Of a stretch of 41,181 nt of DNA, positions 1 through 37,266 are shown in pieces. A model generated the notes under the pieces. The model was given only the letters and a program-made list of their open reading frames with translations, was not told the origin of the DNA and ran no database searches. The DNA comes from a virus: IMG/VR virus record IMGVR_UViG_3300020202_000046, positions 1 to 41,181 of that record; one strand, 5' to 3'. Made by a program: the position numbers and the translations under genes. The first letter of the stretch is position 1; the number at the start of each line of letters is the position of its first letter.

Positions 1-127
1 TTGCAATCGCCTTGTTCAATAATTCGCGGAATGCTTTTGTCACGTTCTCCGGTACGCGGTTCCACTCGTCTTTGCAAAGCTCTATCGCTGCGTCGACTTC
101 TTCGTCCGTTACGTGCCAGTTCGCAAA
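1..127. repeat. terminal direct repeat copy 1 (assembly overlap of a circular or circularly permuted genome)
   Basis: Read directly: bases 1-127 (ttgcaatcgcc...cagttcgcaaa) are identical to 41055-41181. Confidence 0.97.
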
Positions 128-343
128 CGTCCTGCCCCATTCGGCGCTTAAGCCGAGAAGCCCCTCGTTCGTGAGCCGCCACAGCGGGAACGCGGCCATC
201 AAGCGATTCAGCGCATGGTCAACCCACGCTTTTCTTTTTGGCTTGTCGTGCCTCGTGGTCTGCTCGTATTTTTGCGATATCTCTGGGTCCGCCATAGGCA
301 ACAGCGTTGCCAGTGATGTCGGTTGATTTTTGTACAATTGCAT
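1..343 (-). CDS. 5' part of a 195-aa replication-module protein (possible lambda-P-like helicase loader); continues at 41054->40810 in the circle
   Basis: Manual translation of the minus strand from ATG 343-341 stays open to base 1: MQLYKNQPTSLATLLPMADPEISQKYEQTTRHDKPKRKAWVDHALNRLMAAFPLWRLTNEG.... It is in frame (300 nt) with track ORF 40810..41097, whose listed start is an internal GTG. Alternative start is ATG 295. The L.A.FP...W..F...T.EEV pattern loosely recalls lambda P, and the gene directly follows the initiator gene. Confidence 0.5.
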   Translation of the reverse strand, partial: MQLYKNQPTSLATLLPMADPEISQKYEQTTRHDKPKRKAWVDHALNRLMAAFPLWRLTNEGLLGLSAEWGRTFANWHVTDEEVDAAIELCKDEWNRVPENVTKAFRELLNKAIA

Positions 344-1214
344 TTTTCCATACCTCGTTTTTCAAGTATTTTTCGGGATTCGGGATGTAGCGCATTTCTT
401 CCCAGCGCGCGCATTGCTCCTGGCGTTTTGGAATGTCGGCAAAAATTTCTTCAGCGCAGTCATCGCATTTTTTCTGCACCCAGAGGGTTTGCGCCTCTAG
501 CCAGTTGCCAGGCACGGGGTACAGCGCTCTGAACTTGGCAAAGTTATCCTCGGATGCTTCCGTTACGCTGGTGGGAAAATTTTGATAAAAATTACTCGCG
601 CGCGAAGAGAGAGTGTGAGTATCACTGATGTTTGGTTTATTACTAGGATTATTAGGATCACTAATGTCTAGTAATGTAGTAGAAGATGAAGAAGAAGATG
701 TAGGGGATGGAGAAATGGTATCCTTATCCTGGGTAGGCAAGGTATCCTTCTCTGGTGTAGAGATGGTATCCTTATCTTGTTCCTTTTTCCTTGGTACGCT
801 CATATTTTCCAAGGACTTAGCGCCATGAGCAGCGCGCTTATTTCTGATGTATTCATCCCTCATCATGCGTGAAGAAAAAAATAAAGGATTTTCTTCATTT
901 TTTAGTAAAAAAATCGTTAAATTTTCTGAATTTTTTTGAGAAATTGAAATAGAAAAGGATACCTTTTCTCCTTTCTTTTCTGAGCCTTTAAGCACTCCTT
1001 TTTCAACCAGTTCTTTCAATAATCGAACAGGTGCGCCAATCGCTTTTGCAATTTCTTTTAGTGGCCAACGCAATATTCCGTATTCGTCTGAATCATGCAT
1101 TAGTCCCATGACTTCTATCCATGCGCCCCTTGCCTCCCAGGAGCAGCGGCGCAGGTTAGCGTTATTGCGATAATCGGCGGGATAAAATTGCATGGCAGGC
1201 CGCTTTAACGACAT
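219..1214 (-). CDS. DUF1376 (YdaU-like) replication initiator-type protein with Ser/Thr-rich linker
   Basis: The N-terminus MQFYPADYRNNANLRRCSWEARGAWIEVMGLMH fits the DUF1376 pattern. It sits after cro and early genes, as ydaU does in Rac. It carries iteron-like repeats internally. Confidence 0.7.
   Translation of the reverse strand: MSLKRPAMQFYPADYRNNANLRRCSWEARGAWIEVMGLMHDSDEYGILRWPLKEIAKAIGAPVRLLKELVEKGVLKGSEKKGEKVSFSISISQKNSENLTIFLLKNEENPLFFSSRMMRDEYIRNKRAAHGAKSLENMSVPRKKEQDKDTISTPEKDTLPTQDKDTISPSPTSSSSSSTTLLDISDPNNPSNKPNISDTHTLSSRASNFYQNFPTSVTEASEDNFAKFRALYPVPGNWLEAQTLWVQKKCDDCAEEIFADIPKRQEQCARWEEMRYIPNPEKYLKNEVWKNAIVQKSTDITGNAVAYGGPRDIAKIRADHEARQAKKKSVG
715..963. repeat. candidate origin of replication: four GGTATCCTTNTC 12-mers flanking an AT-rich stretch, inside the initiator gene
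   Basis: GGTATCCTTATC at 717-728, GGTATCCTTCTC at 741-752 and GGTATCCTTATC at 765-776 have an exact 24-bp period. An inverted copy GGTATCCTTTTC lies on the minus strand at 963-952. The interval around 840-950 is visibly AT-rich. Confidence 0.5.
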
Positions 1215-3485: not shown

Positions 3486-4217
3486 ATGTCTCAACTAACT
3501 TATTTTAGCCATGCGAGTAATTTTACCGGATACATGGAGAAAATATTAAAAATGATCGCCAAAGATGGCTCAGGGTCTAATAAAACTGCTTTGGATTTTC
3601 CAGCTGGCAATGGTTTAATGTGTGATGGGCTAAAAAAGCAAGGATTTGCTGTTACTGGCGCCGACATCAATGGCGCGAGGAAAGATTTTGTAAAAGCGAA
3701 TTTAGAAGAGAAACTTCCTTTTTTTGATAACGAATTTAATTATACGTTGTGCTTAGAAGGCCTTGAGCATCTTTTAGCGCCAGCTCAGACCATAAAAGAG
3801 CTAGTGCGCGTTACAAAGGAAGACGGCTATATTATTATCAGCACTCCTAATATACAAAACGCTTTCAGTAGGTTTATTTTTTTATTTACTGGTGAATTTT
3901 ACCAATTTAATCCACGCTACTTTTTTAATATAAACCGAAAAGAATTATGCGACAGAGGCCATATTAGCCCTTTAAGCTATTACCAACTCGTTTATTTATT
4001 TAAACTTTATCATTGTAAACTAGTTGATGTTGAGGGTGACAGATATAAGCGTAAGGCTTTGGCTCCTTTTTACTTGGCTGTTGCGGCCATTAATTATTTG
4101 TGGTTTTTATTCAGCGGAAAGAGAAGGTTAGAAATCTATAAATTTTCTTTTTCTACGAAACTGCTATTAAGTCGTTCTATAATTTTAAAATTCAAGAAAA
4201 ACCAACCAGGGCTTTAA
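3486..4217 (+). CDS. class I SAM-dependent methyltransferase (no DNA-MTase motifs), cargo
   Basis: LDFPAGNG (motif I), GADIN, CLEGLEHL and GYIIISTPN are present. There is no DPPY/NPPY or PC motif. Confidence 0.7.
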   Translation: MSQLTYFSHASNFTGYMEKILKMIAKDGSGSNKTALDFPAGNGLMCDGLKKQGFAVTGADINGARKDFVKANLEEKLPFFDNEFNYTLCLEGLEHLLAPAQTIKELVRVTKEDGYIIISTPNIQNAFSRFIFLFTGEFYQFNPRYFFNINRKELCDRGHISPLSYYQLVYLFKLYHCKLVDVEGDRYKRKALAPFYLAVAAINYLWFLFSGKRRLEIYKFSFSTKLLLSRSIILKFKKNQPGL

Positions 4218-35923: not shown

Positions 35924-36226
35924 CTAAAAATTCTCCACAAAAAACTTCTCAATCACGGCCTCAAACGCCTTAATATCAAACTCGCCGCCCTCGCCGCTTT
36001 GGCGGCCAATCCAGACTTTATCGGGGCGAGTACCATTTGCGATGAATAAATCGCCTATATTAATGCGATCATCCAGATTAATACCGACTACAGGAAATGC
36101 GCCAGTATTATCAGGAATTTTAAATTCCTCGCCTTGGCTCCTTTTTATGTGTTTTATGATGGCCTTTCTAAACCTTTCTTTTTCATCTGGCGTTCTGTCT
36201 TTCAGCATTTCTAATGACTCGCTCAC
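35924..36226 (-). CDS. hypothetical protein (100 aa)
   Basis: Start moved to GTG 36226 (GTGA overlap with the DUF2829 stop, GGAGGTGG SD). The track uses TTG 36241. Confidence 0.55.
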   Translation of the reverse strand: MSESLEMLKDRTPDEKERFRKAIIKHIKRSQGEEFKIPDNTGAFPVVGINLDDRINIGDLFIANGTRPDKVWIGRQSGEGGEFDIKAFEAVIEKFFVENF

Positions 36227-36429
36227 TCCACCACCTCCCAATCATCGGCCAGGACATCTTCTACCCTAAGATTATCAATTTGATGCAAAATAGATTCTCC
36301 GTTTTCCTCGGTATAAAAATACATTTCTCCTGCATTTATGAATATCGGGAAAGTTGTGCGGCTTTCACTTATTTTTCTCATAACAGGTTTCCCCGCCTTC
36401 ATCGCTTCAAGTGCTTGGCTGAAGTTCAT
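36223..36429 (-). CDS. DUF2829-family protein (Tad2-like)
   Basis: MNFSQALEAMKAGKPVMRK at the N-terminus and EDVLADDWEVVE at the C-terminus are the classic DUF2829 termini. Confidence 0.7.
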   Translation of the reverse strand: MNFSQALEAMKAGKPVMRKISESRTTFPIFINAGEMYFYTEENGESILHQIDNLRVEDVLADDWEVVE

Positions 36430-36878: not shown

Positions 36879-36946
36879 TTCAATCCTCCGCACCGCATTT
36901 TTTACATTCTAAATTTAAATCACTCATCATTCCTCCTTATCTAAAC

Positions 36947-37052
36947 TGGAGGCGGCAGGATGGACTCGAACCATCTAGGGCGCGCGCATTAGCTTGCCGA
37001 TTGCCCACTTGTAGCTAACCAAGCGCGTGTCACCAGCCACGCCGCTACCACC
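36947..37052 (-). ncRNA. tRNA-like element B (106 nt): cloverleaf-compatible non-canonical tRNA
   Basis: Minus strand: GGTGGTAG-CG-GCGTG(GCTGGTGA)CACGC-G-GCTTG(GTTAGCTA)CAAGT-[31-nt arm closed by GGGC/GCCC]-GATGG(TTCGAGT)CCATC-CTGCCGCC-T-CCA. All helices were checked by hand. No ORF covers it. Confidence 0.6.
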
Positions 37053-37089
37053 ATAAATCATTATCCAACATTCCGGAAAAGCCGGAAAG

Positions 37090-37266
37090 TTATTTCCCCC
37101 TCACATCCCGCTCCGGTATAAACCACGTATGCCCACACTCGCACTTACGCGCATTCGGGAAGTGTATCTTGCGCCCGCTCTCTTGATGCTTGAGCTTTGC
37201 TCTGATGCGCTGCTCGCAAACGCCCTGAAGCTTGGCGACTTGTTTTGTGCTGAGTTCTTTTTTCAT
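37090..37266 (-). CDS. small excisionase-family HTH DNA-binding protein (58 aa, below the track cut-off); candidate late regulator
   Basis: Manual translation: MKKELSTKQVAKLQGVCEQRIRAKLKHQESGRKIHFPNARKCECGHTWFIPERDVRGK (HTH_17-like). Confidence 0.55.
   Translation of the reverse strand: MKKELSTKQVAKLQGVCEQRIRAKLKHQESGRKIHFPNARKCECGHTWFIPERDVRGK

Follow-up and report, generated by a model that had tools for sequence, protein, structure and literature searches.

Transfer-messenger RNA (tmRNA) is matured by the enzymes of transfer RNA (tRNA), and unrelated RNA cargo, set in the anticodon region or beside it, is processed and stabilised on a tRNA body in two further systems: the engineered 'tRNA scaffold', a laboratory design for recombinant RNA expression, and the tRNA-microRNA chimeras of the herpesvirus MHV68, a eukaryotic virus. 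For the species 1/2 stable RNAs of phage T4 we know of no function. Allo-tRNAs are defined by a 12-base-pair (bp) acceptor branch (8/4 or 9/3), a long D stem with a tetraloop, a true anticodon arm and a long variable arm, and both they and the irregular soil tRNAs were discovered, as false positives of the model for selenocysteine tRNA (tRNA-Sec), in soil and sediment metagenomes and in phages (PMC5389517). The anticodons of allo-tRNAs are diverse; for some of these RNAs, which show no activity in translation, a role as regulatory non-coding RNAs was proposed (PMC5389517). YrlA is a non-decoding tRNA mimic with a T-arm, a D-arm and an elbow, which also occurs in phages and is in some cases RNase P-cleaved and provided with CCA; it is circularly permuted, with both termini in the stem that binds Ro60 and a closed hairpin as its 'acceptor', and it is encoded beside Ro60 (PMC4201824). 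Here we analysed a 41,181-nucleotide (nt) stretch of viral DNA, positions 1 to 41,181 of the IMG/VR record IMGVR_UViG_3300020202_000046 (the whole stretch is called the window), and describe element B, a 106-nt tRNA-like RNA encoded on its minus strand from 37052 to 36947, the encoded U-CCA included. On balance we favour the reading that B is a divergent member of a widespread, phage-encoded family of non-decoding tRNA-like RNAs; that it belongs to this family and does not decode is, taken by itself, highly probable. The family, absent from Rfam and not found in the literature searched, is of a known kind, that of the tRNA-like non-coding RNAs.

The cloverleaf drawn by hand for B, from which alone we built a covariance model (R1), comprises the following parts.

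36947-37052, minus strand: element B, entire; R1 self-match and family matches, and a sub-threshold Rfam tRNA-Sec match at 36951-37052
37045-37052, minus strand: 5' strand of the acceptor, GGUGGUAG; 8 bp with 36951-36958, including two G.U pairs (U3.G, U6.G)
37025-37044, minus strand: CG linker and D-arm GCGUG-GCUGGUGA-CACGC; matches the family pattern save at D-loop positions 2-3
36976-37024, minus strand: variable centre, the candidate payload; two hairpins plus UA, above-chance stability not seen
37007-37024, minus strand: anticodon-like hairpin GCUUG-GUUAGCUA-CAAGU with an 8-nt loop, within the variable centre
36978-37006, minus strand: extra arm GGGC-21 nt-GCCC, 29 nt, within the variable centre
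36959-36975, minus strand: T-arm GAUGG-UUCGAGU-CCAUC with a 5-bp stem and a 7-nt T-loop, directly preceded by UA
36947-36958, minus strand: 3' strand of the acceptor, CUGCCGCC, with discriminator U and encoded CCA, as read from the sequence

In this structure the 8-bp acceptor stacks straight onto the 5-bp T stem (8/5, a 13-bp branch), the elements of the tRNA elbow are present in the T-loop UUCGAGU and in the D-loop GCUGGUGA with its G18G19, and the RNA, which has 63% GC versus about 40% GC in the surrounding region, carries U3.G70 and a discriminator U73 (a C-U-CCA end). An initial annotation of the window had described an 8-bp acceptor with two G.U pairs, a 5-bp D-stem with GG in its loop and a canonical T-arm followed by a discriminator U and an encoded CCA, and all of these are there, the acceptor being moreover paired and covarying in relatives. 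Its anticodon-like stem with an 8-nt loop and its extra arm closed by GGGC/GCCC can also be read in the letters, but the arm measures 29 nt and not about 31, neither hairpin is conserved in any relative, and their stability is at chance level, with z-scores against shuffled sequences of -1.6 for the anticodon-like hairpin, -0.5 for the extra arm and -0.1 for both together. The 8-nt loop GUUAGCUA holds no valid Y32-U33-NNN-R37 register, in agreement with the earlier remark that it gives no clean anticodon reading. The minimum free energy fold of the whole of B is not a cloverleaf and has a z-score of -0.8 against shuffles; pairings of positions 29-33 with 57-61 and of 35-40 with 59-64 compete with the hairpins of B, and the two hairpins of its centre could pair loop to loop (UUAGCU with AGCUAA). 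When the phage's own sequence was searched for antisense or seed targets of this centre, the best match was 11 nt long, which equals the shuffled expectation. The top half therefore needs outside evidence.

ARAGORN, which the initial annotation had named as a check, called no tRNA or tmRNA gene in the window at default settings, and Rfam at gathering thresholds gave no match on B. Under permissive conditions the only Rfam match on B was tRNA-Sec (RF01852), at 30 bits versus a gathering score of 47, in an alignment that covers the acceptor together with the D- and T-arms and treats the anticodon arm as a deletion. With the intron option and lowered stringency, ARAGORN read B as Val(UAC) with a 16-nt 'intron' at position 38.

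The outside evidence lies in the relatives of B. We searched about 1 Mb of fetched phage loci with R1, whose first matches scored 28-45 bits (L024/L090, L148, L120, L173, L088, L122) and whose matches at L249, L217, L226, L024, L148, L120, L173 and others scored 29-51 bits with expect (E) values of 4e-9 to 1e-4; ordinary tRNAs did not exceed 26 bits under this model. Common to the matches are a closing stem that is divergent in sequence but paired, the CG linker, an A before the 5-bp T stem and a 7-nt T-loop, and their D-arm is near-invariant, GCGUG-GAC(A/G)GUGA-CACGC. The 21-mer of the conserved D-arm was then searched as an exact string in IMG/VR, which returned at least 120 contigs, and R1 confirmed 46 more members. 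Unless stated otherwise, the family statistics given here refer to 91 parsed members; loci L209-L328 form the family-wide set. Rfam contains, even at permissive thresholds, no family that covers the D-arm-defined members, no GenBank phage was found to carry the D-arm motif, and no description of the family was found in the literature searched, although it may have been listed anonymously among the 10,006 IMG/VR structured-RNA candidates of a 2023 catalogue (PMC10690425).

Across the family, at least 89 of the 91 members keep acceptor pairs 2-8, with all four Watson-Crick types in use, and the T-loop follows the pattern U(G/U)C(A/G)A... The T stem covaries, and so do those D stems that do not belong to the pattern-anchored set (GCGCG/CGCGU, GCGUU/AAACG). 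In 58 scaffold sequences, 95.3% of the cells were paired versus 37-41% with slid partners, and both-sided changes were seen in 14 of the 19 scaffold pairs, a result reached by none of 500 shuffles. Moreover, D-loop position 4 and T-loop position 2 covary, being A:G in 58 members and G:U in 32, with one exception; members of the A18/G55 class have the D-loop GACAGUGA and the T-loop UGCAAUU, and members of the G18/U55 class the D-loop GACGGUGA and the T-loop UUCGAnU. Judged from the loop sequences, this covariation is the 18:55 elbow contact of tRNA, which argues that the L-shape is conserved; a G55 would be no substrate for the pseudouridine-55 synthase. The acceptor stem is 7 or 8 bp long, and both an 8/5 version with N73 and a 7/5 version with A73 occur in the family, many members being 7/5. 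A CCA stands in the correct 3' register in 13 of the 91 members versus about one per offset elsewhere in the trailer, which is G-poor and U-rich; leader position -1 is a U in 53 of the 91, positions -5 to -1 are U/A-rich, and the flanks of the family show no spaced -35/-10 signal. The comparison of members shows the family to keep the top half of tRNA and tRNA-type termini, with a lineage-specific structured insert replacing the anticodon and variable region.

Element B matches 14 of the 16 invariant and 13 of the 13 near-invariant columns of this scaffold, compared with a median of 4 and 4 and a best of 9 and 7 for ordinary tRNAs from the same loci. It deviates from the family D-arm only at D-loop positions 2-3 (CU instead of AC), and with its G18/U55 it obeys the 18:55 rule that holds in 90 of the 91 members. 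The helix covariation together with the tertiary 18:55 covariation ruled out a phage attachment site (attP) or another DNA-level explanation for B. Thus, the top half of B (acceptor, D-arm, T-arm and the encoded U-CCA) is supported beyond chance, and its bottom half is not supported by sequence alone.

In contrast to the near-invariant D-arm, the stretch from D-arm to T-arm is hypervariable: it measures 29-190 nt, its sequences and folds are unrelated among members, and 81 of the 91 centres are distinct (non-redundant). No centre motif is shared, and the T-loop-like GAUUCC was the only, mildly, enriched k-mer. Anticodon-type hairpins, taken as a stem of at least 4 bp with a 7-nt loop right after the D-arm, occur in 5 of the 91 members versus 5.2 +/- 2.1 in shuffled centres, a frequency that speaks against the frame of a frameshift suppressor or Sec/allo-type decoder in which B had been placed at the outset. 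Hairpins with an 8-nt loop like that of B were found in 7 of the 91, with unrelated loop sequences. ARAGORN called none of the 91 members, and with introns allowed (-i, default stringency) it fitted four of them at inconsistent positions. In the sister pairs L217/L287 and L221/L230, the centre hairpins show compensatory changes, and the centres are therefore constrained. Furthermore, one acceptor sequence can go with unrelated centres (GCAAUCG, 9 members with 7 distinct centres; GACUCAG, 9 members with 8), which argues for a modular chassis with an exchangeable payload. A T-arm-like hairpin was also seen inside the payloads of L231, L239, L260 and L290 and at window positions 8498-8512 (e.g. 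CUGGUUCGAUCCCAG or GCGAGUUCGAUUCUCGC); by its predicted form, it is a tRNA-like module nested in a tRNA-like scaffold.

A mechanism for such an RNA can be outlined as follows. The element would be co-transcribed with its neighbour genes and excised at G1 by RNase P, its 3' end would be trimmed or given a CCA, which in B is pre-encoded, and the RNA would fold into a stable L-shape and accumulate. The tRNA part would then be both a chassis for maturation and stability and a handle for tRNA-binding host factors, and the insert would carry a specific activity, for instance as a decoy, an aptamer or a trans regulator, so that the RNA would act via its payload, its tRNA-like handle or both; in B, the insert would amount to two short hairpins and no codon would be read. 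We put this chassis-plus-payload mechanism forward tentatively. A bolder version, which we consider rather unlikely, is a natural phage 'tRNA scaffold' in which the host RNase P, RNase Z and CCA-adding enzyme would mature and stabilise a large and rapidly exchanging repertoire of structured RNA payloads, with B and a sibling element at 8454-8585 of the window (see below) as two of its cargos; as decoys or aptamers, the payloads would perhaps counter defence factors of the host or factors that target tRNA.

We next consider the genomic setting. The window, a singleton metagenomic contig, is by its annotated genes a temperate phage, with a CI-like repressor, a Cro-like protein, AAA_24, an excisionase-like helix-turn-helix protein and an integrase, and further with a Dam methylase, a holin, structural genes, a terminase, RusA, a Tad2-like gene and DUF551. 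Searches via flanking proteins found no close relative of the window, and no RNA ligase, nucleotidyltransferase, Ro60, SmpB or synthetase-like protein is encoded among its proteins. Element B is flanked by an open reading frame (ORF) of 58 amino acids (aa) of DNA-binding type and by a 150-aa gene (phrog_31971), both co-oriented with it, and the terminase lies about 2.6 kb downstream; promoter prediction gave nothing directly upstream of B and a promoter-like site ahead of the 58-aa ORF. All long ORFs are intact in the standard code, and simple stop-codon recoding is unlikely, as had already been argued. The immediate surroundings of B hold three further features.

37053-37062, minus strand: A/U-rich leader AAUGAUUUAU, directly 5' of B; identical before the sibling element (8454) and before the family member L278
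37071-37087, minus strand: hairpin UUCCGG-CUUUU-CCGGAA after the 58-aa ORF; local context, outside the conserved element
36880-36943, minus strand: AAGGAGG Shine-Dalgarno (SD) sequence and 16-codon mini-ORF; local context, absent at the syntenic locus L002

The upstream hairpin and the mini-ORF with its perfect SD sequence, both pointed out in the initial annotation, are real. The hairpin, which lies outside the conserved element, is stable (z -4.8 against shuffles); on the strand of B it lacks a U-tract after it, and a scanner gave it a terminator score on the plus strand only. The mini-ORF (36930-36880), whose SD begins 4 nt beyond the CCA of B, is local to this phage: it lies within an insertion of about 48 nt relative to L002, in which the same TTTAGATAARGGRGGAAT runs directly into the MIPIEQQ gene with no mini-ORF between.

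On the syntenic contig L002, the slot of B is filled by an ordinary tRNA-Tyr(GUA) with conserved flanks, tRNAs stand in this slot in L052, L053 and L079 as well, in other phages the gene family that lies downstream of B is closely preceded by Pro or Phe tRNAs or by an 8/5 tRNA-Sec(UCA), and phages with related terminases have ordinary tRNAs in this region. Because ordinary tRNAs thus fill the same slot or region in related phages, we conclude that B occupies a tRNA slot. A 20-mer, ACGTGGTTTAT(A/G)CCGGAGCG, is common to window positions 37105-37124 (minus strand) and L002 positions 3883-3902; the window copy codes for the C-terminal end of the 58-aa ORF, and the L002 copy is non-coding and abuts the 5' end of tRNA-Tyr (GGAGCG). 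The sequence context gives this 20-mer the look of a recombination junction that borders the tRNA slot. On another phage-like metagenomic contig (L031), ARAGORN called at positions 67-161 (plus strand) a well-formed 8/5 tRNA-SeC(UCA) with G73, 162 nt upstream of a homologue of the downstream gene of B, and this could be a phage-borne tRNA-Sec or an opal suppressor. About 500 nt downstream of B, a 68-aa gene at 36223-36429 (minus strand) has a Tad2-like domain (PF11195, a Thoeris anti-defence family). Since genes of the Tad2-like and DUF551 types are met again in the vicinity of other members, B is set in a gene neighbourhood of accessory, anti-defence type.

At the level of the family, no conserved protein partner emerged when 2,520 flanking ORFs were clustered. 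The neighbours are diverse phage accessory and replication genes, nearly all of them co-oriented, and an ordinary tRNA lies within 2 kb in 14 of the 91 cases, always on the same strand. Synteny of the slot was seen only with AAA_24 and orf139 and concerns the sibling element. A type II hammerhead ribozyme (53 bits, above the gathering score) was found in L277 at 369-429 (plus strand), about 800 nt upstream of a family member.

Other explanations have to be weighed against a non-decoding member of an RNA family. We consider it unlikely, though deserving attention, that B is a cis element for processing ('punctuation') or a 5'-untranslated-region element whose excised RNA has no function. RNase P with RNase Z (or RNase E) would then cut the polycistronic transcript at the tRNA-like fold, so that the 58-aa gene upstream would no longer be tied in stability or translation to the mini-ORF and the MIPIEQQ gene downstream. 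The location of B between co-oriented genes, with an SD 4 nt past its CCA and no promoter directly upstream, agrees with such a role, as does the restriction of conservation to the top half, the substrate of RNase P and RNase Z; 48% of the members, versus 26% of controls, have an SD-like motif after them. Most members, however, are not tightly coupled to a downstream start, and a bare acceptor/T minihelix would be enough for cleavage, yet the D-arm, the elbow and a compensated centre are kept; the in-register CCA of a subset, moreover, matters for a released RNA only. An aminoacylatable tRNA mimic, used on the ribosome in the manner of tmRNA or off it as an amino acid donor or as a sink for a synthetase or EF-Tu, seems to us improbable. 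The tRNA-like acceptor with N73-CCA and the enrichment of the CCA register in the family would suit it, and discrete acceptor types are kept across unrelated payloads, as expected for identity elements; irregular soil tRNAs with G-1 are charged by histidyl-tRNA synthetase (HisRS) and not used in translation (PMC5389517). Nevertheless, B has U3.G70 instead of G3:U70 and lacks the C73-CCA for HisRS, 7/5 and 8/5 branches coexist in one family, which speaks against a strict fit to EF-Tu or SelB, and there is neither a resume codon or tag ORF nor an SmpB-like or aminoacyl-tRNA synthetase-like gene in the window.

That B is a decoding tRNA with an 8-nt anticodon loop, be it a frameshift or missense suppressor, for instance one that reads with UAG, or a Sec/allo-like adaptor, is very improbable. 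The letters allow a cloverleaf whose D-arm is immediately followed by a 5-bp stem closing an 8-nt loop, and an 8/5 branch, a long extra arm, a canonical T-loop, G18G19 and an encoded CCA are all in B; its best Rfam match is tRNA-Sec, real tRNAs fill its slot in related phages, the family members L024 and L173 have a canonical-looking UCA loop, and in nature a UAG anticodon within an 8-nt loop is found in yeast mitochondrial tRNA-Thr(UAG) (PMC7609411). But the loop GUUAGCUA offers no U33-NNN(N)-R37 register, its hairpin is not above chance (z -1.6) and faces competing pairings, the family has no anticodon arm, B is called neither by ARAGORN at default settings nor by Rfam at gathering thresholds, the long ORFs are intact in the standard code, position 73 is a U and not the G of Sec and Ser tRNAs, and, as to frameshift suppression, the body of B is that of no recognisable isoacceptor. 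We find it hardly credible, finally, that B is a tRNA gene left in a phage tRNA slot that carries an intron or is decaying into a pseudogene: the tRNAs in this slot of related phages, the low-stringency ARAGORN parse as Val(UAC) with its 16-nt 'intron' and the deviant D-loop of a singleton would fit it, yet B retains every scaffold helix, obeys the elbow rule and has an intact leader and CCA, and at least 91 relatives show strong selection on the scaffold. The intron-containing tRNA was rejected on the grounds that ARAGORN -i fits 4 of the 91 members at default stringency and at inconsistent positions; to our knowledge, bacteria possess no machinery for short tRNA introns.

The assignment of B to a non-decoding, phage-encoded family has points against it as well. 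The invariance of the D-arm is in part ascertainment, since most members were retrieved by the exact D-arm 21-mer. Megablast and blastn revealed no direct copy of B in GenBank phages, plasmids or E. coli genomes, exact-pattern scans of IMG/VR and GTDB genomes (with the T-arm plus acceptor of B, and with its D-arm) gave no match, and a loosened D-loop pattern gave only spurious matches in GC-rich coding sequence; B is thus without a close relative in these searches. A reciprocal covariance model (R2), made from the family scaffolds with the centre removed, ranks B first in the window, but it aligned the 5' half only (18.6 bits, E 0.009) because it cannot bridge the 49-nt insert of B, and half-scaffold hidden Markov models are short and of low power. 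A gene starts within 40 nt downstream in 29 of 86 members, which is also compatible with a cis role. Canonical-looking anticodon loops exist in L024, L173 (UU-UCA-AC loop) and L228, the only such members; L024 (3880-3984, plus strand) and L173 (940-1044, minus strand), which come from different phages, share a hairpin after the D-arm with U33, anticodon UCA and A37, and also an 8/5 branch and a long 6-bp extra arm. Going by these loops, decoding of UGA may persist in a minority of members, or else the family may have arisen from an ancestor like tRNA-Sec. Everything said here beyond the existence of a structured RNA family is what we infer from it.

The window contains a second RNA derived from the family.

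8454-8585, plus strand: sibling element; R1 18 bits, with the same leader AAUGAUUUAU, a closing stem GGCGGUAG/CUACCGCC nearly that of B, U-CCA and an SD after it

The sibling is strongly structured (fold z -3.2) and remodelled in its interior, where GCGUG pairs with CGCGC beside the 3' strand of the acceptor and a nested mini acceptor, GGCUUUA/UAAAGU, occurs together with a T-arm that is perfect, CUGGUUCGAUUCCAG. In 6-7 other phages, the slot in which the sibling lies, downstream of AAA_24 and orf139, is taken by canonical members of the family. A further match, to the ends of tmRNA, was seen at 12599-12734 on the minus strand (27 bits, E 3e-7; GGGGUC... and ...GGGAGUUCGAUCCUCCUCGGCUCCACCA, G3:U70, ACCA), about 800 nt beyond the integrase (10755-11783) and antisense to a 70-aa ORF. 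Its sequence probably represents an attP core with the 3' end of the host ssrA gene, not an RNA gene; alternatively, it may be a mini-tmRNA-like RNA.

If our reading is right, B is an entry to a large class of phage non-coding RNAs that is missing from Rfam, found by one exact 21-mer on at least 120 IMG/VR contigs and composed of a near-invariant tRNA elbow and D-arm with a hypervariable structured insert. Bacterial tRNA mimicry would then extend beyond tmRNA, Y RNAs and the T4 species 1/2 RNAs, a natural A18:G55 / G18:U55 covariation at the elbow would be open to structural study, and it would suggest that phages exploit the tRNA-maturation pathway of the host for stable functional RNAs. It would also provide a natural precedent for the engineered tRNA scaffold, of which no natural bacterial or phage equivalent was found in the literature searched. 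In practice, tRNA finders and Rfam miss such genes, and 'exotic anticodon loops' drawn by hand in them ought not to be taken for signs of recoding.

Compared with the known systems, B agrees with tRNA-Sec (RF01852) in its 8-bp acceptor and 5-bp T stem, its 2-nt linker and the long region before its T-arm; tRNA-Sec differs in having UCA in a 6-bp anticodon arm, a D stem of 6 bp with a 4-nt loop, and G73, whereas B has no UCA, a 5-bp/8-nt D-arm and U73. Within the family, the likeness to tRNA-Sec goes as far as the UCA loop of L024 and L173. Allo-tRNAs and irregular soil tRNAs resemble B as non-canonical tRNA-shaped RNAs, but B has an 8/5 branch of 13 bp and a 5-bp/8-nt D-arm, and its family has no anticodon arm. 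The 8+5 geometry, which the initial annotation took as a hallmark of both Sec and allo-tRNAs, is accordingly shared with tRNA-Sec, other features of which fail, and not with the 8/4 or 9/3 allo-tRNAs. As in the family of B, tmRNA has a tRNA-like acceptor/T domain and a large structured domain in place of the anticodon region; but tmRNA has G3:U70, no D stem, pseudoknots and a tag ORF, whereas B has U3.G70, a full D-arm and no ORF, tmRNA is conserved in sequence throughout whereas the family insert is hypervariable, and the tmRNA model (RF00023) gave no match on B. In contrast to YrlA, the ends of B form the acceptor stem, and neither a permutation nor a TROVE/Ro60 gene nearby nor an Rfam match was found. 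Identity of B with tRNA-Sec, allo-tRNA, tmRNA or YrlA was rejected, as defining features of each of them are lacking. The T4 species 1/2 stable RNAs (rnaC, rnaD), of about 120-140 nt, share with the family of B a small size, phage encoding, a place in a co-oriented tRNA cluster, a tRNA-type T-arm with tRNA-type ends, and a large non-tRNA interior. They show no similarity in sequence or to the models, with scores of 10 bits for R1 and 14.7 bits for R2 (T-arm only), the family D-arm is absent from them, and they are confined to T4-like phages whereas the family occurs in diverse uncultured phages and in no GenBank phage. Thus, we conclude that rnaC and rnaD are the nearest architectural analogues of the family, and that the likeness is architectural only.

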